A stretch of DNA of 37,796 nt, from positions 1 through 37,796 of IMG/VR virus record IMGVR_UViG_2897375277_000008; one strand, 5' to 3'. The position numbers and the translations under genes were made by a program. How positions within the stretch are numbered: the stretch's first letter is position 1; the number at the start of each line of letters is the position of its first letter. Below the pieces are notes generated by a model that did not search any database, was not told the DNA's origin, and saw only the letters and a list, made by a program, of their open reading frames with translations. The DNA is from a virus. Its lineage: Duplodnaviria > Heunggongvirae > Uroviricota > Caudoviricetes. This document shows positions 2,313-37,796 of this stretch, one piece after another.

Positions 2313-2483
2313 TCTGTTCAGAATGCTGTATTTCTGAAAAAACGTGATGCTCTCATCGTCCACACCAATCTACGACTGAACATTCCACTTATAGTTAAGG
2401 ATAAATGGGATGAGGATGAAATCCTGGAGCGGGGTAAAAAGTTGGGGGAAATTGCATTGAAAGTATGGCCAAAACACGATTAA
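2313..2483 (+). other. 3' end of a plus-strand ORF abutting the IS66 end (possible IS-disrupted gene)
   Basis: Frame open from the IS junction to TAA at 2481..2483, ending ...KWDEDEILERGKKLGEIALKVWPKHD; no start codon in window. Confidence 0.25.
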
Positions 2484-2507
2484 TGCAATTAATAAAATAA
2501 TTATAAC

Positions 2508-2527
2508 GGCCTTACATTAGTAAGGCC
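2508..2527 (-). terminator. Hairpin, probable intrinsic terminator for minus-strand transcription
   Basis: Perfect 8-bp stem ggccttac/gtaaggcc with 4-nt loop; on the minus strand it is followed by a U-rich tract. Confidence 0.45.
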
Positions 2528-2578
2528 GCTACTCACTATTAAATCCTTTAATTTGCATCAAGAACAGCAGTGTCAGCC

Positions 2579-2707
2579 CTAGGTCTCGGACTTTGTACCG
2601 CTTATCTTGTCTTCAAAAATCAGCTCGCATCCTGCACAGTTCAGCGCATTACGTTGTAGATCTGTGTTCTGGTCATTTATTGATACGCGTACATAGCCAA
2701 TAAGCAT
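2579..2707 (-). pseudogene. pin: Truncated Gin/Pin/Hin-type serine invertase (N-terminal ~40 codons only)
   Basis: Minus-strand translation MLIGYVRVSINDQNTDLQRNALNCAGCELIFEDKISGTKSET-stop matches the invertase N-terminus including the catalytic-serine region, then hits a stop at codon 43 and no further invertase-like sequence follows. Confidence 0.75.
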
Positions 2708-2733
2708 AGTGGCTCCCTCTGACAAAAGCAGGA

Positions 2734-3312
2734 ATGATGCCATTTGCTCGTTATTTCTGCATTTTCATAAACGTTGGTTTGGGAGAAGGCTCTGCATTAC
2801 CGGTTGGGGTGCCTGTTCCGTGGCCTTCAGCCACTCCGCCAACAGGCTGGCTGAAATGCAATGGTGCGGCTTTTTCTGCTGAAGAATACCCGGAACTGGC
2901 AAAGGCTTACCCGACCAATAAATTGCCTGATTTACGCGGTGAATTTATTCGTGGCTGGGATGATGGACGTGGAGTGGATGCGGGGCGAGCCTTGCTAAGT
3001 CTTCAGAATGACTCTTTTGAAGCTCACAGGCATGAGTCCTTTTTTTACGCGGGTATTTCACGCAATGAAACACCATTAAAAAATCTTCCAAGTTCAGACG
3101 AGATGCTGACTTTAAGTTCCACAACTAATGCCTTGTCCCCGGACAGTATTGATGCCACCAATTCGTTAATTGGTAATGATGATTACAACTGTCTGATTGA
3201 AGGAAATAAAAATAACAAACGAACGGCAACGGGGTTGAGTACCAGTATTGTCGGTGCAGCAGAGACACGCCCACGTAATATTTCATTTAATTACATTGTG
3301 AGGGCTGCATGA
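2734..3312 (+). CDS. Alternative tail-fibre C-terminal cassette (silent in this orientation; no own start)
   Basis: ORF contains PVPWPSATPPTGWLKCNGAAFSAEEYPELAKAYPTNKLPDLRGEFIRGWDDGRG, the classic phage tail-fibre C-terminal motif; real coding starts at the crossover site around 2776. Confidence 0.7.
   Translation: MMPFARYFCIFINVGLGEGSALPVGVPVPWPSATPPTGWLKCNGAAFSAEEYPELAKAYPTNKLPDLRGEFIRGWDDGRGVDAGRALLSLQNDSFEAHRHESFFYAGISRNETPLKNLPSSDEMLTLSSTTNALSPDSIDATNSLIGNDDYNCLIEGNKNNKRTATGLSTSIVGAAETRPRNISFNYIVRAA
2762..2787 (+). other. Inversion crossover site (gix/pix-like), left
   Basis: 26-bp site ttttcataaacgTTggtttgggagaa; right half-site and central TT identical to the reverse complement of the site at 4598..4623. 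Confidence 0.7.
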
Positions 3313-3914
3313 TGTATAACGCCATCTTAAATAATAAATTTATTGCCACAAAGGCAGGAGAGATTACCGTTTATAACTATGACAGTGAGACACGGGAGTA
3401 TATTTCTGCATCAACTGAATATCTTGCTGTGGGTGTCGGTATCCCTGCATATTCCTGTTTAGATGCTCCTGGCACACATAAGGTTGGTTATGCAATCTGC
3501 CGTTCGGCAGATTTAAACTCATGGGAATATGTGCCAGACCATCGCGGTGAAGTTGTCTATAACACCGAAACGGGAGAATCAAAAGAAATCACAGCTCCGG
3601 GTGATTACCCTGAAAATACAACCACTATCGTCCCGTTAACGCCATACGATAAATGGGATGGTGAGAAATGGGTGACAGATACTGAGGCACAGCATAGTGC
3701 CGCAGTAGACGCGGCAGAAGCACAGCGCCAGTCGCTGATTGATGCTGCAATGGCTTCCATCAGTCTGATTCAACTGAAATTACAGGCCGGGCGGAAGCTG
3801 ACGCAGGCAGAAACAACCCGACTTAACGCCGTGCTGGATTACATTGACGCGGTGACGGTAACAGATACCAGCACCACGCCGGATGTCATCTGGCCTGAAC
3901 TGCCGGAGGCGTAG
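3309..3914 (+). CDS. Tail fibre assembly protein (alternative cassette)
   Basis: 201-aa ORF directly after the alternative fibre cassette; C-terminus ...[12 protein letters not shown] is Tfa-like. Confidence 0.7.
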
Positions 3915-4314
3915 GCCATTCAATATCGGGTGCTGTTGAAGTATCAACACGCATCAGCAGCACACGGTATTTCTTCCATTTGGTGAGAGTTGAAGTTTCT
4001 TCATCAGTTGCGATATCAGCATCAACAGCATCCTGACGCCAGGATATTTCACTGTCAGCTTTTTCCCGTAATTGGGATTTTTTAACTTCAGCAATAGCTA
4101 TTAATTCCTTTTTGGTCGGCTGAGGAATATCTATCAGTGCTGGTTTTCCATTCAGTGTTCCAATCTGTTTTCCTGGTAGAATATCCGTAAATAACTTTTT
4201 ATGTTCTTCCTCACTGACTATTACACCATCATCAGGCCACAGACCTGATGCCTCAAATTTTTCTTTCTCCGATATGGGGAAAAAGCCATTTGCTTTAGCG
4301 CTCCATACGTACAT
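3886..4314 (-). CDS. Tail fibre assembly protein (expressed cassette)
   Basis: 142-aa ORF after the tail-fibre gene, C-terminus ...[15 protein letters not shown]; converges on and overlaps the other tfa by 29 bp. Confidence 0.7.
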
Positions 4315-4315
4315 A

Positions 4316-4900
4316 TCAATACCCCACCGCTATAATGTCCACATTAAATCCCCCGGGACCTGCCTGCCAGATGCTGGCCCCTGTTAATGATTTTGTTTGA
4401 TGAACAACCGCCACATTTGCTGGCGATTGTGTTTCAGTTGTTACAGTACCGATATCATTCCAGTTAATTGAGATGGAATAGTTCGTTGTTGTAAACGACC
4501 GGGGGAAAGTTATGTGTCTTACATTGGTGCCGACAGGAAATCCAAGATAAACACGCTGAATTATCATTCCTCCAGGTAACATAACCCAGTTAGCACCTTC
4601 TCCCAAACCAAGGTTTTCGAGAGCTGTTTTCACCGTGCCATCCGATTTGATATCGCCAAACGGATTCTTGCGGCTTAACAGCAGCGCACGAAGCGCGGTA
4701 AGCAACTGGTCGTGCCGCGCCTTCTCCAGGCTGGCACCGGAGGCCTCCACCACGCTGCAGAGTTCTTCCTGCAACATGTCAAAGTAGTCATCATCCAGAT
4801 CGGTGGCAGGCGTGCCTGTCTGGGGGTTACCACGGGTAAAACCGTTCTTACCCGGGCCGAACTTATCCTTCTGCGCGGTTTTCGTGTCTATACGATGCAT
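4316..4900 (-). CDS. Tail fibre protein (constant N-terminus joined to current variable C-terminus)
   Basis: 194-aa ORF between the YmfQ-like gene and tfa; crossover site lies inside it at the LENLGLGEG codons. Confidence 0.65.
4598..4623 (-). other. Inversion crossover site (gix/pix-like), right, inside the tail-fibre gene
   Basis: Plus strand ttctcccaaaccAAggttttcgagag; reverse complement shares TTGGTTTGGGAGAA with the left site; both sites encode the shared GLGEG peptide. Confidence 0.7.
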
Positions 4901-24644: not shown

Positions 24645-25580
24645 ATGCTCTTGGGAGATAATGAACGTTTCATGATCAAATGCCAGGTTACTTTAAAGAA
24701 GTATCCTAATGACGCACCTGACATGCCTTTAGTAAACTGTATTCCTGTTTTAAAAAATCGCTATAACAAAGGAGAAGCTGTTTACGAATTAAACAAAGGA
24801 CGTTCTGTCATAAGATTGCTATCCATAAAAGACGATGAAAATTACCTGAAATTGCTTTTTCAATATATAAATAAAGATGCTTCTGATCCCGCCTTTTCCA
24901 ACATAAAAACTGGTGAAACCAGAATTGAGAAAAAGCAAAATGATGAAGGTATGGGGTACTCTGCTCATGTGCTTATCAAAAAAAGACCGAGCGACTCATC
25001 ATTCCAAGATTGTTATGAGGCAATTTTAGAAGAAGTTCCGGGCATTACCAGAGGTTTATTAGCCCAAGCTTTAACTTATTTCCTGCGAGAAAATAATTTT
25101 TCCTTTATCCGTTCAGGAGGGAAAAAAGAACTTAAGTGCAGACCTATTTTCGACATTGATTTTTTGGCTGCAATAACACTTGAGCAATCTCTATCCACTG
25201 GTTATTTATGTGGACTTACTGCTACTCGTCGCTTTAAAGATAACTCTTTAGATGATGATGGCACAGTAATGGTTGAAGAAGAAACACTAAAGCTATCAAC
25301 AAAAATACGTCGCGGAGAGGGTGCAATTAAGGCGATTAAGTCTGCATATGACAAACTTCGTGGTAGAAAGTATACAATGTTAAGAATTTCTTATAAAGAC
25401 AAAAATAAACGCGTTTCATCAGATCTTGTTTCCATCGGAAAAGAAATGAGCTTACAGGAACTCGCAACAGCACAATTGGCACAACGTGAAAAAGCAGTGT
25501 TGGCATCAACAATTGCCGTTTGCCAAACAGCATTTCACGAAGAACTTCTCGCAAAAATGCAAAACTTTATGTTAAAGTGA
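24645..25580 (+). CDS. Hypothetical 311-aa soluble protein, first gene of the AT-rich insert
   Basis: Long ORF with AAGGAA Shine-Dalgarno; no Walker, HNH or other motif I recognise; codon usage visibly AT-rich; opposite strand to the late operon. Confidence 0.7.
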   Translation: MLLGDNERFMIKCQVTLKKYPNDAPDMPLVNCIPVLKNRYNKGEAVYELNKGRSVIRLLSIKDDENYLKLLFQYINKDASDPAFSNIKTGETRIEKKQNDEGMGYSAHVLIKKRPSDSSFQDCYEAILEEVPGITRGLLAQALTYFLRENNFSFIRSGGKKELKCRPIFDIDFLAAITLEQSLSTGYLCGLTATRRFKDNSLDDDGTVMVEEETLKLSTKIRRGEGAIKAIKSAYDKLRGRKYTMLRISYKDKNKRVSSDLVSIGKEMSLQELATAQLAQREKAVLASTIAVCQTAFHEELLAKMQNFMLK

Positions 25581-25612
25581 AGGCATGGAAAACCTGTCAA
25601 AAGGAGGCATAT

Positions 25613-26182
25613 ATGTATGTTTTATCTAAGGTTTTTACACCTATAGACTACCTACGCATAAAGCATCCTGAGAAGCGATTTTTTGACTGGGTTTTACCCA
25701 TTTTCACTGCTGCAATTATTACTTTATCCATCTATTACTTACCGAAAACCATCTCACTTCTCGGGAAGGATAGTCTTGTGTCTTTAGTAAACGGGATACT
25801 TCAAATACTATCTGGTTTTTACATTGCATCTATGGCTGCAGTTGCAACCTTCAGTAAGGATGGTATGGATGAAGTTATGCATGGCATACCTCCGGTATTA
25901 AAAGGTAAAAAACTTACAAGGCGTAAATTCCTCACTTATCTATTTGGTTATTTAGCGTTTATGAGCATCGCGCTGTATTTCGTTGGAGGAGCACTTCAAC
26001 TAACCAGTGCAAGCATCAAGGAATTACACCTTTCATCATATCCACTAGTGAAATCATTACTTTTGTTTATTTATTTAAGTACCATATGCAACATTATATA
26101 CACAACGGCATTAGGTATGTATTTTATGATAGACAAAATGCATGATGAAAAATCGAAACTTATAATTAAAGATAAAGAATGA
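25613..26182 (+). CDS. Hypothetical 189-aa membrane protein with four predicted TM helices
   Basis: Start set at ATG 25613 (AAGGAGG 5 nt upstream; track ORF begins 25520). Four hydrophobic segments of about 20 to 28 aa and a Lys-rich tail. Confidence 0.65.
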   Translation: MYVLSKVFTPIDYLRIKHPEKRFFDWVLPIFTAAIITLSIYYLPKTISLLGKDSLVSLVNGILQILSGFYIASMAAVATFSKDGMDEVMHGIPPVLKGKKLTRRKFLTYLFGYLAFMSIALYFVGGALQLTSASIKELHLSSYPLVKSLLLFIYLSTICNIIYTTALGMYFMIDKMHDEKSKLIIKDKE

Positions 26183-34420: not shown

Positions 34421-34666
34421 ATGCTTCAAATGTTAACTCTTGAAGAATGGGCTTCTGAAAAATACAGAAGTAATCCTCCAAGCGTTTCCACGTTGCGTCG
34501 TTATGCTAAGCAGAATTTGTTTTGTCCACCGGCAATGAAACAAGGTCGGTTATGGCGAGTGCGTGAGGACGCCGAGTTAGTTGGAGAGCTGGTAACACCA
34601 GTAATTAAGAAAAATGACTCATTACTTTTGCAACGGATTTTGAGTGATGGCAGCCAGACCGCGTAA
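34421..34666 (+). CDS. xis: Excisionase-like protein
   Basis: 81-aa ORF immediately upstream of and overlapping the integrase gene. Confidence 0.6.
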   Translation: MLQMLTLEEWASEKYRSNPPSVSTLRRYAKQNLFCPPAMKQGRLWRVREDAELVGELVTPVIKKNDSLLLQRILSDGSQTA

Positions 34667-35774
34667 GAATAATGTTTCAGTCCCTAACTTATATCCGCTT
34701 TATAGCCGAAAGGTAAATAAAGTCTATTGGCGGTATAAGCATCCAATAACAGGGAAATTCCATGCTTTGGGAACAAACGAAGCTGAAGCTATCGCTATTG
34801 CCACTGAAGCCAATACGCGCCTGGCTGAACAAAGAACCCGGCAGATTCTGGCCATCAGTGACAGGATCGCAACCAGCAAAGGGAAAGCAATCACAACGTC
34901 AACTTGGTTAGATCGCTATCAAGCGATCCAGAATGACAGGCTGCAAAGTGGTGATATAAAGCTCAACACCTACAAGCAGAAAGCCAAACCTGTCTCCTTA
35001 CTTAGAGAACGGGCAGGATTGAAGCTAATTTCAGCTGTTGATGTCCGGGATATTGCACAATTACTTGATGAGTATATTGCCGCTGGGCAACCGAGAATGG
35101 CACAAGTAGTTCGCTCCGTCCTGATTGATGTTTTCAAAGAGGCGCAGCACTACGGAGAAGTACCTCCTGGCTATAACCCTGCATTAGCTACTAAACAGCC
35201 AAGAAGAAAAATTACCCGACAACGGCTGAGCCTCGAAGAATGGAAAAAAATATTCGATATCGCAGATGCCAGCCATCGTTACATGGGAAATGCCATGCTG
35301 CTAGCCTTGGTTACTGGTCAGCGGTTAGGTGATATTTCACGTATGAAATTTAGCGATATTTGGGATGATCATCTGCATGTCATTCAGGAAAAAACCGGGA
35401 GCAAAATCGCCATCCCGCTTTCCCTGCGCCTCAATGCGATTAACTGGAGTTTGCGCGATGTAGTAGCCCGTTGCCGTGACTATGCTGTCAGCCCATACCT
35501 TGTACATTTTTTTCGTACTACTTCACAGGCTGAACGCGGCGCACAGGTTAAAGCCAATACCTTGACTATGAATTTCAGTAAAGCAAGAGATTTAGCAGGA
35601 ATTGACTGGGGTGAAGGTTCTCCCGCAACATTTCATGAACAAAGGTCTTTATCAGAACGTTTGTATAAAGAACAGGGTTTAAATACACAAAAATTACTTG
35701 GTCATAAAACACAACAACAAACCGATCGTTATCATGACGATCGAGGCAAGGGATGGAGCAAAGTAGCGTTGTGA
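34644..35774 (+). CDS. int: Tyrosine integrase, lambda Int family
   Basis: 376-aa ORF; parallels lambda Int as I recall it (…VTGQRLGDISRMKFSDI…, …TFHEQRSLSERLYKEQ…, …LLGHKTQQQTDRYHDDRG…, with the C-terminal catalytic Tyr). Confidence 0.9.
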   Translation: MMAARPRKNNVSVPNLYPLYSRKVNKVYWRYKHPITGKFHALGTNEAEAIAIATEANTRLAEQRTRQILAISDRIATSKGKAITTSTWLDRYQAIQNDRLQSGDIKLNTYKQKAKPVSLLRERAGLKLISAVDVRDIAQLLDEYIAAGQPRMAQVVRSVLIDVFKEAQHYGEVPPGYNPALATKQPRRKITRQRLSLEEWKKIFDIADASHRYMGNAMLLALVTGQRLGDISRMKFSDIWDDHLHVIQEKTGSKIAIPLSLRLNAINWSLRDVVARCRDYAVSPYLVHFFRTTSQAERGAQVKANTLTMNFSKARDLAGIDWGEGSPATFHEQRSLSERLYKEQGLNTQKLLGHKTQQQTDRYHDDRGKGWSKVAL

Positions 35775-35924: not shown

Positions 35925-37796
35925 TTAAACCACGATTCCTAAATGGCATGGTTGCTCACCTTCAAGAGAGGCTCTCATTAAGGTCAGGAATTGGGATAAA
36001 TTATTTCTAAAATCAGAACCACTATCTTCCGCCATTCCTGGAGCTAACGAACTTACTAATAAAGCAGGTGTGATAGGTCTTGTTCCGTAAATACTATATT
36101 TCTCATGATGGAAATGACGAGTCTCGCAAGATTCACTTGGATTTACAATCATCAGCCCAGAAGACAAACTTTTTCCAGTATTTTTTTCATGTATACCATG
36201 AAGGTATTTCATAGTGAGTTCGGGGAGGTAATGTGTAAACGCTTTTTTACTGGTAGTATACTTTGCATCTAGGATTAATTGCCTTTGTTCACCCGTAGGC
36301 GTTGAAATGCAAACTATCATGTCTGGTGATCGATTAGCATTAGGACCTTGCTGCCCTCTAGGCTTCAATTTACCTTTCACGGTGTCTAGAGTCCACCCTT
36401 CGGAGTTAATTAGGGAAGCCCCAAAAGAGCTTGCATGATCATGAGTCCAAATTTTCATCTCATAGATAAGCTGTACAGTAAAACCTCCCCAGTCATACTC
36501 AAAATTATTCCGTTCTATTACAGGGCCATTCACTAGCTCAAACTTCATGCCCAATAACCGTACGTTGTCAAAGTGATACTTAATTAAAAATAATAGGTAG
36601 TATTCAAAAAGTTTTGGGATACTTTGTATCGAAAATAGCTCTTCCTGTACGCTCCAATCAGGTGCGCCGAATCTATGCCAAGCAATTATTTTATGAAAAA
36701 CCTTCTGATAATGAAGGTTGTATCTAGCTTTTCTTGTGAATTGCGGAGTGCCAATGATAATATTAGTTACAGGAACCCGCTCATCAAAAGTTCGTTTCAA
36801 ACGCTGTAGATTAATAATCAATTCTTTACATCGTGAAACTTTATTTTTATTTACAACCTTTGCAAACTTACTTAGCTGTGCAAAAAATGAAATATACCCG
36901 GATATGCTCGACTGTTCACGAATTCTGGAAGAAGGATACTCTTCAAGCCGACTCAAGATCTCCGATGCAGCACGCATAAGGGATACTATAAAGCCATGGA
37001 CAACTTGATTTTCATAAATATTCAAATCCTCTTTTAGATGATTTTCTAATATTCGTTCCGATGAATAATATGTGCCATCTAGTTCCAATATTGCGCGGGT
37101 CTGATCATTAACTGGATAAAGGTTGTCAGAGTTTTCTGAAATCCAAGCTAAAGTGGTGTCATCGATAACAGAGTTTTCAGATACTACGACAACTTTAGTC
37201 ACTGGTGTAAGTTTTGCGATTGGCCTGGAATAGATATTTGGAATCTCGGTCATTAACAATAAAACATTTCGTTCGAGTTGTTCAATCAAAAAGCTAACCG
37301 ATCTTTCTCCTTCTTTGAATCCTGCATTTATACGAGTTACTCTAAAAAATGCTGCTAGAGCATCATTATCATGACACGCTAAGAAATCGAGCATTTTTTC
37401 TGCCCGTTCAGCATTCAATTTTTTGGCAAATACTTCAACCGGAGAATATTGTTCAATAATAACTCTTTCGCCAACTCCATCGATTTTCGTTACTATCGAT
37501 AGCTCTGCCATACCATAATAGTTATGAAAAAAGCATTCGTATGTTGATCGATATATAGATTTTGGTTTCCATTCGTAAATCCATAGGCCATCGTATTCTT
37601 TGCTAGAAGTTATTCCTATTTCATTTTCATGAAGACATAAAAAAACATCATCCAACGGAACAGATGCTTCCAGCCTAAACTCTAGAGCTTCGTCTTCCAG
37701 AAAATAAATCTGATTAGAGGACTGAAGACCAAAGGGAGTCAACCCTATCTCTAGACCACTTCTCCTGCCGTTTATTATCTTCGCAGTAAACCTCAT
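35925..37796 (-). CDS. McrC-like PD-(D/E)xK nuclease family protein (start codon at window edge)
   Basis: 623-aa AT-rich ORF; C-terminal ...SPDMIVCISTPTGEQRQLILDAKYT... parallels the McrC catalytic region (…DITIRSSEKILIVDAKYY…) as I recall it. Confidence 0.6.
   Translation of the reverse strand: MRFTAKIINGRRSGLEIGLTPFGLQSSNQIYFLEDEALEFRLEASVPLDDVFLCLHENEIGITSSKEYDGLWIYEWKPKSIYRSTYECFFHNYYGMAELSIVTKIDGVGERVIIEQYSPVEVFAKKLNAERAEKMLDFLACHDNDALAAFFRVTRINAGFKEGERSVSFLIEQLERNVLLLMTEIPNIYSRPIAKLTPVTKVVVVSENSVIDDTTLAWISENSDNLYPVNDQTRAILELDGTYYSSERILENHLKEDLNIYENQVVHGFIVSLMRAASEILSRLEEYPSSRIREQSSISGYISFFAQLSKFAKVVNKNKVSRCKELIINLQRLKRTFDERVPVTNIIIGTPQFTRKARYNLHYQKVFHKIIAWHRFGAPDWSVQEELFSIQSIPKLFEYYLLFLIKYHFDNVRLLGMKFELVNGPVIERNNFEYDWGGFTVQLIYEMKIWTHDHASSFGASLINSEGWTLDTVKGKLKPRGQQGPNANRSPDMIVCISTPTGEQRQLILDAKYTTSKKAFTHYLPELTMKYLHGIHEKNTGKSLSSGLMIVNPSESCETRHFHHEKYSIYGTRPITPALLVSSLAPGMAEDSGSDFRNNLSQFLTLMRASLEGEQPCHLGIVV

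Follow-up and report, generated by a model that had tools for sequence, protein, structure and literature searches.

Can a tail-fibre switch still change its orientation after the invertase gene beside it has been destroyed? Tail-fibre inversion is textbook knowledge, and a defective neighbouring invertase is normally dismissed as decay. The question is raised by a prophage of the class Caudoviricetes, IMG/VR record IMGVR_UViG_2897375277_000008, of which positions 1 to 37,796 were analysed (this whole 37.8-kb stretch is referred to as the window). In this window, a stub of the DNA invertase gene pin lies next to an invertible segment of the type known from the P segment of the e14 element of Escherichia coli K-12. 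We consider it likely that the locus is an orphaned e14-type switch, which has lost its resident invertase, has kept its cis apparatus and is flipped by invertases encoded elsewhere. The flipping was observed by comparison of related genomes, and the segment of this particular genome may behave in the same way. The trans-acting enzyme would be one of the invertase types named below.

The switch itself consists of the following elements.

2762–2787, no strand: crossover site beside the stub, pix-type, 12+2+12 bp, core TT at 2774–2775.

4598–4623, no strand: crossover site within the fibre gene, core AA at 4610–4611.

2776–4609, no strand: invertible segment, 1,834 bp separating the core dinucleotides, found as the exact reverse complement with the same flanks in strain H22.

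According to direct reading of the letters and a repeat finder, the site beside the stub is TTTTCATAAACG TT GGTTTGGGAGAA, and the site within the fibre gene is TTCTCCCAAACC AA GGTTTTCGAGAG. Their inner half-sites are inverted copies of each other without a mismatch, and the cores TT and AA are complementary in the inverted sense, as the Hin/Gin/Cin/Pin systems require for religating the exchanged ends. The two inverted 26-bp sites with imperfect 12-bp half-sites around a 2-bp core, which these systems also require, are thus present. The half-site TTCTCCCAAACC occurs at two places in the window, both of them crossover sites (chance expectation 0.24), and the full 26-mer occurs once (0 expected). 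A chance origin of the inverted repeat is ruled out by these expected counts. Further crossover sites, as in a multi-inversion system, were not detected in the window by the half-site and 26-mer searches. Both 26-bp sites are identical to those of the K-12 e14 P segment, and the P-segment repeat TTGGTTTGGGAGAAGG reported for e14 (PMC12529663) is the same as window positions 2774–2789.

Three pairs of stub-carrying genomes were compared. The closest relative of the window is H22, with flanks 99.8–99.96% identical; its 1,834-bp segment is the reverse complement, with one interior mismatch. Between UTI89 and IHE3034, the flanks agree at 100% over 4,889 bp and 2,588 bp, and the 1,925-bp segment between them is exactly inverted with no mismatch. 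In the case of MEI148-20EC (MEI148 below) and LST200A, a type IV restriction gene and the stub match over 2,487 bp at 100%, and the segment is again exactly inverted with no mismatch. The inversion end-points of all three pairs lie in the crossover sites. The segment is thus found across genomes in both orientations with its ends at the sites, and one of the pairs includes the window. Because the three pairs carry the stub on different allele backgrounds, and each shows the same flanks around a reverse-complement segment, the comparison indicates at least three inversions after the truncation. Orientation-specific queries also showed that the cassette next to the stub varies among the carriers (79 UTI89-type, 67 collar-type and 12 Gp53-like genomes). 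A first reading of the window from its letters, referred to as the sequence-only reading, had called the switch 'probably frozen'. At the population level this is unsupported, because of the three exact inversions (0, 0 and 1 interior mismatches) and the varied cassettes on the stub side.

The segment carries two convergent cassettes, each with a fibre C-terminus and a tfa gene.

4900–4316, − strand: expressed tail-fibre gene, 194 aa, with a constant N-terminal part from 4900 to about 4610 and a variable Gp53-like C-terminus at 4609–4316 (Pfam Gp53-like_C).

4314–3886, − strand: tfa chaperone gene of the expressed cassette (Pfam Caudo_TAP).

2776–3312, + strand: silent alternative fibre C-terminus of the tail-collar / short-fibre receptor-binding type (Pfam Collar and S_tail_recep_bd, assigned to the product of the in-silico inversion).

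3309–3914, + strand: tfaE-like chaperone gene of the silent cassette (Pfam Caudo_TAP), 89.6% identical in nucleotides to the K-12 tfaE region.

The crossover lies within the GLGEG codons of the fibre. When 2776–4609 was inverted in silico, the constant N-terminal part (about 98 residues) was fused in frame to the silent cassette, giving a fibre of 275 aa. The fibre thus has 194 aa and Gp53-like_C in one orientation, and 275 aa with Collar and S_tail_recep_bd in the other, and a Caudo_TAP gene comes next in both. In-frame alternative C-termini with a Tfa of their own are the hallmark of invertible host-range cassettes of the Mu S/U–S'/U' type, and the locus has this arrangement. The reading frames of both cassettes and of their tfa genes are unbroken.

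The invertase gene beside the segment is reduced to a stub.

2579–2707, − strand: pin (DNA invertase) stub, 42 codons and TAG, 129 bp; pinE homology ends at about 2584–2586.

The stub encodes MLIGYVRVSINDQNTDLQRNALNCAGCELIFEDKISGTKSET, followed by the stop. It covers positions 2–48 of the 145 positions of the Pfam Resolvase profile; about 100 of these catalytic-domain positions are missing, as is the entire DNA-binding domain, the helix-turn-helix (HTH). The adjacent complete serine recombinase (catalytic domain and C-terminal HTH) of the Hin/Gin/Cin/Pin systems is thus missing, and tblastn with PinE found no second invertase in the window. The pin stub is non-functional as an invertase gene. 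Aligned to pinE of K-12 and of APEC37, the stub matches from nt 1 to about nt 122 with two mismatches (98% identity to K-12), and then the homology is lost. The stub cannot be explained by a nonsense or frameshift mutation of a pin gene that is full-length in other respects, as pinE homology stops at about nt 122–125 and the DNA beyond is unrelated. The exact breakpoint is uncertain and probably lies between about codon 41 and codon 50. A weak residual similarity over about 25 further nt (KSESLGLTLL versus KSERPGLKKLL in the L001 allele) suggests that the position may be near codon 50. At 2583/2584, a 1-bp indel is polymorphic among stub carriers: MEI148 (L001) and LST200A (L008) have an extra G and 48 open codons (KSESLGLTLLFLMQIKGFNSE, then the stop), and in the window, in H22 and in UTI89 the stop comes at codon 43. 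In relatives, RefSeq labels the stub 'recombinase family protein, incomplete, missing C-terminus'. The stub is thus already known as an annotated pseudogene; what is new is the retained enhancer region, described below, and the repeated inversion after the loss.

Most of the architecture proposed in the sequence-only reading was confirmed by these analyses. Two inverted 26-bp sites with a common half-site and core were found where it had placed them, at 2762–2787 and 4598–4623. The roughly 1.8 kb with two convergent cassettes proved to be 1,834 bp with recognizable Pfam domains, and its view that the crossover inside the GLGEG codons would exchange the receptor-binding C-terminus agrees with the in-frame 275-aa product. 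It had also described a Pin/Gin-like gene that stops after about 40 codons, which fits Resolvase positions 2–48 of 145 and pinE nt 1 to about 122. The alignment of 2579–2707 to pinE, which it had named as a check, was run; the stub aligns, and the homology ends at about nt 122–125.

Beyond the stub, three further features bear on how pin was truncated.

2311–2483, + strand: 3' remnant of a DUF262/GmrSD type IV restriction gene, the last 56 codons or so (Pfam GmrSD_C).

2503–2532, − strand: hairpin with a 13-bp stem and a T-rich tail, between the restriction-gene stop and the pin stub.

1–2310, − strand: IS66-family element; tnpC is cut by the window start, tnpB lies at 1495–1842 and tnpA at 1839–2240, and the element ends at about 2310 (Pfam TnpB_IS66, HTH_Tnp_1).

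A collection of 5,426 complete E. coli genomes was searched with the restriction-gene/stub junction (window 2400–2775, coverage of at least 80%). The junction was found in 288 of the 5,426 genomes, including UTI89, S88, IHE3034, APEC O1, NU14 and ATCC 11775. The restriction gene was found in 323 genomes (300 at a coverage of at least 80%) at 328 places, and is essentially single-copy; among the 60 rows listed, 59 show one place, and all 60 have the stub annotated beside it. The stub and restriction-gene module is thus carried by about 290–320 of the 5,426 genomes. In the phage collection, no record with the stub was found; the matches are intact invertase genes, and most alignments end at or before the breakpoint. 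A PinE scan of species-representative genomes returned many Enterobacterales invertases and nothing informative on the stub-carrying E. coli.

The restriction gene is intact (629 aa) in L001, L003 (UTI89) and L005 (H22), where it matches the PADLOC model mREase_IV (type IV methyl-directed restriction enzyme) over positions 1–629 of 629, and it is uninterrupted in the six stub carriers inspected. A full-length GmrSD-like enzyme, with an N-terminal DUF262 and a C-terminal GmrSD_C, is thus encoded in relatives and not in the window. The gene stands in place of mcrA of K-12 e14, where the remaining part of pinE and then mcrA are present. The IS66-family insertion at 2310/2311 corresponds to about codon 573 of the 629 codons, and homology to uninterrupted relatives starts at window position 2312. 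The insertion was found in none of the complete E. coli genomes of the collection. As a cause of the truncation it is ruled out: 268 bp separate the end of the element from the stub, and the same junction of stub and restriction gene recurs in 288 genomes. According to these comparisons, the 3' three-quarters of pin were replaced by the restriction gene, and the IS66-family element was inserted later and specifically in this genome, because no complete genome of the collection has it. The sequence-only reading had placed the IS66 end directly next to the stub, which was not upheld: the 268 bp between them include the 3' end of the restriction gene at 2311–2483. Its terminator hairpin after the stub was found, with a T-rich tail, at 2503–2532 on the − strand. 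The hairpin is part of the incoming cassette and not of pin.

The stub prophage lies beside the icd pseudo-duplicate in MEI148, LST200A and H22, as does e14. In H22, the xis/int genes of another element abut the stub prophage, which suggests prophages in tandem. UTI89 and IHE3034 have different prophage neighbours (LEM-3-like GIY-YIG and DinI-like).

The stub retains the 5' end of pin, in which the enhancer of this class of systems is located.

2618–2689, − strand: region homologous to the P1 cin recombinational enhancer (gene nt 19–90), with Fis-core-like 15-mers at 2672–2686 and 2623–2637.

The enhancer was placed according to the annotation of the P1 GenBank record, in which the Cin enhancer is located at cin nt 19–90, the statements of PMC3798978 and the titles of papers. 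The region 2618–2689 is 99% identical to K-12 pinE and 78% identical to cin. Two G-N13-C cores lie in it, 49 bp from centre to centre, and about 96 bp separate the middle of the proximal core from that of the crossover. The corresponding distance in Salmonella, from the proximal Fis site to hixL, is about 100 bp (PMC3798978). The truncation thus appears to have left all known cis elements, that is, both crossover sites and the enhancer-homologous region. Eight stub loci were aligned with regard to selection on the enhancer, and few substitutions were found. The sole coding difference of the stub from pinE lies at 2679 (pin nt 29; C29T, Thr10Ile), and UTI89 has the ancestral C. This substitution is at the centre of the proximal Fis-core-like 15-mer and raises its A/T content.

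Which enzyme could act on these sites? In K-12, PinQ and PinR (Qin/Rac) and PinE are reported to invert the e14 P segment, PinQ and PinR acting in trans (PMC12529663). Further invertases in the stub carriers were counted by blastn with a chimeric query of the restriction-gene marker, the 3' part of pinE and pinQ; the marker alone served as the control for copy number. The extra invertase-like loci are counts of chromosomal match places. At least one further invertase-like chromosomal locus was found in 55 of the 60 non-ST95-type stub carriers listed (two in H22, two in LST200A and four in MEI148). Among the UTI89-type (ST95-like) carriers, which are much poorer than the others, the number is 33 of the 60 listed. 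A trans-acting invertase, which the sequence-only reading had left open as an escape from freezing, is therefore likely, given the retained enhancer region and the extra loci in these carriers.

On these grounds we propose the following account. The locus is an orthologue of the e14 P-segment switch, in the Hin/Gin/Cin/Pin class of systems that depend on Fis and an enhancer, and inversion of 2776–4609 swaps the receptor-binding C-terminus of the fibre and, with it, the matching Tfa chaperone. The invertase was destroyed when a type IV restriction gene cassette in convergent orientation replaced pin 3' of about nt 122, and an IS66-family element later interrupted the restriction gene in this genome. 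Both 26-bp sites and the enhancer-homologous region in the 129-bp stub, about 96 bp from the nearer site, remain. Such an orphan substrate would not flip alone. It would flip when the cell has an enzyme of the Pin/Gin/Cin or PinQ/PinR type, supplied by another prophage, a plasmid or a superinfecting phage.

Several points weigh against this proposal. Among the UTI89-type carriers listed, 27 of 60 have no second invertase-like chromosomal locus detected by the blastn probe, and the switch may now be effectively locked in some lineages. Both orientations occur even among UTI89-type genomes without a detectable second locus (PMV-1 versus ZJ3920); in such lineages the flips may be old, or the enzyme may since have been lost or be too divergent to detect. 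The invertase search in the genome of the window covered the 37.8 kb, and a trans-acting invertase would be encoded outside them. The inversions, at least three, were counted by pairs of genomes, and Fis binding at the stub is predicted from homology only. Furthermore, deletion of pinE in K-12 is reported to lock the e14 P segment despite pinQ and pinR (PMC12529663). Native levels of the paralogous invertases could be insufficient. Alternatively, the deletion may also have removed the enhancer in pinE nt 19–90, whereas the natural stub keeps it. Neither a mention of the enhancer nor a discussion of Fis is found in PMC12529663.

These points bear on the strongest alternative, in which the locus is a frozen relic: the segment would have been locked since the truncation, with one fixed fibre, and the silent cassette would be decaying baggage. 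The window without an intact invertase, the stub without most of its catalytic positions and its DNA-binding domain, the 27 UTI89-type carriers and the reportedly locked K-12 deletion strain speak for it. However, the exact inversions between three pairs of otherwise identical stub loci, the intact reading frames of both cassettes with their tfa genes, and the other invertase-like loci in most non-ST95-type carriers argue against it, and we regard it as unlikely. A generation of the two orientations by RecA-dependent recombination between the inverted repeats of about 20 bp, or by horizontal replacement of the region, is very improbable. In its favour, the arms share a 21-nt stretch, 95% complementary, that could in principle support rare homologous exchange, and no trans-acting enzyme has been directly identified. 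Against it, repeats of 20–21 bp are no longer than the shortest that RecA exchanges efficiently, and so rare a process would hardly be expected to yield three or more independent events that left the flanks unchanged. The inversion ends also fall at genuine invertase sites, the same as in e14, and replacement would need crossovers within the roughly 70–190 bp between the stub breakpoint and the site.

The orphaned switch flipped in trans is thus the preferred explanation, and a further step can be considered. The pin stub may have been kept because it carries the Fis-dependent enhancer. The locus would then be a cis-only orphan switch, obligatorily set by the invertases of other elements (PinQ/PinR- or Gin/Cin-type), and the choice of fibre would be tied to the other prophages or plasmids present or induced. 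We hold this extension to be possible but rather doubtful. A fibre-derived anti-phage surface phenotype, as of StfE2 in K-12, might be coupled likewise.

The closest known system is the P segment of K-12 e14 with pinE (stfP/tfaP/tfaE/stfE). The 26-bp sites are identical, and the stub is 98% identical to pinE nt 1–122. The gene order (ymfQ, the constant part of the fibre, two convergent cassettes of C-terminus and tfa, then pin) is the same. One cassette, the collar type with tfaE, is about 90% identical, and the icd site is the same in the relatives L001, L005 and L008. In e14, however, pinE is intact and mcrA comes next, whereas here pin breaks off after about codon 41, and the gene beyond it is another type IV restriction gene, read in the opposite direction. 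The Gp53-like cassette is unrelated to StfP. Moreover, e14 is a remnant, whereas the prophage described here is apparently complete, with genes for tape measure, sheath, head, portal, terminase and integrase.

The Mu G segment with Gin and the P1 C segment with Cin are similar in that an invertase gene adjoins a segment swapping a fibre C-terminus and its chaperone. The enhancer is inside the 5' end of the invertase gene in these phages, and over this stretch the stub has 76–79% identity to gin and cin. Unlike the present prophage, Mu and P1 have an active invertase of their own, and both their fibres and their segments are larger (3 and 4.2 kb); in P1, cin is turned towards the segment with its 3' end, and not with its 5' end. 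Action across elements is not without parallel: Fin of Fels-2 is said, in work of Kutsukake et al. from 2006, to act on the Salmonella H segment. In the case of PinQ and PinR acting on e14, too, the orientation of a segment is set by an invertase encoded elsewhere (PMC12529663). The segment retains an invertase of its own in both of these cases; here, with the resident gene lost, trans action would be obligatory.

The surrounding genes of the window encode Mu Gp48/YmfQ, baseplate J, gp46, V, tape measure, sheath, major head, portal, terminase, replication protein and integrase, and the prophage around the switch is apparently a complete one of the myovirus type with a Mu-like tail. Just past the integrase gene (34644–35774), a 623-aa protein with DUF2357 and a PD-(D/E)XK domain (PDDEXK_7) is encoded at 35925–37796 on the − strand. 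It has no PADLOC match and may be a further nuclease-type defence gene flanking the prophage. At 24645–26182, two open reading frames of 311 and 220 aa lie on the + strand of a prophage that is otherwise on the − strand. The matches of the first are confined to PHROGs of unknown function, and the pair might represent a moron or a cargo module.

The broken allele is widespread: about 5–6% of complete E. coli genomes carry it, including the model extraintestinal pathogenic strains UTI89, S88, IHE3034 and APEC O1. At this prophage end, a type IV restriction gene has replaced mcrA and part of pin, which illustrates that defence-gene turnover at prophage termini harms neighbouring functions. Annotation pipelines and inverton surveys that demand a neighbouring recombinase would misclassify such orphan loci as fixed, because the segment still changes its orientation in the comparative data. 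The locus is a clean natural test of whether the enhancer is sufficient in cis and of which heterologous invertases serve an orphan site. If the tentative role of the stub as an enhancer is true, the locus would be a natural host-range or defence switch that was wired across prophages after losing its own recombinase.

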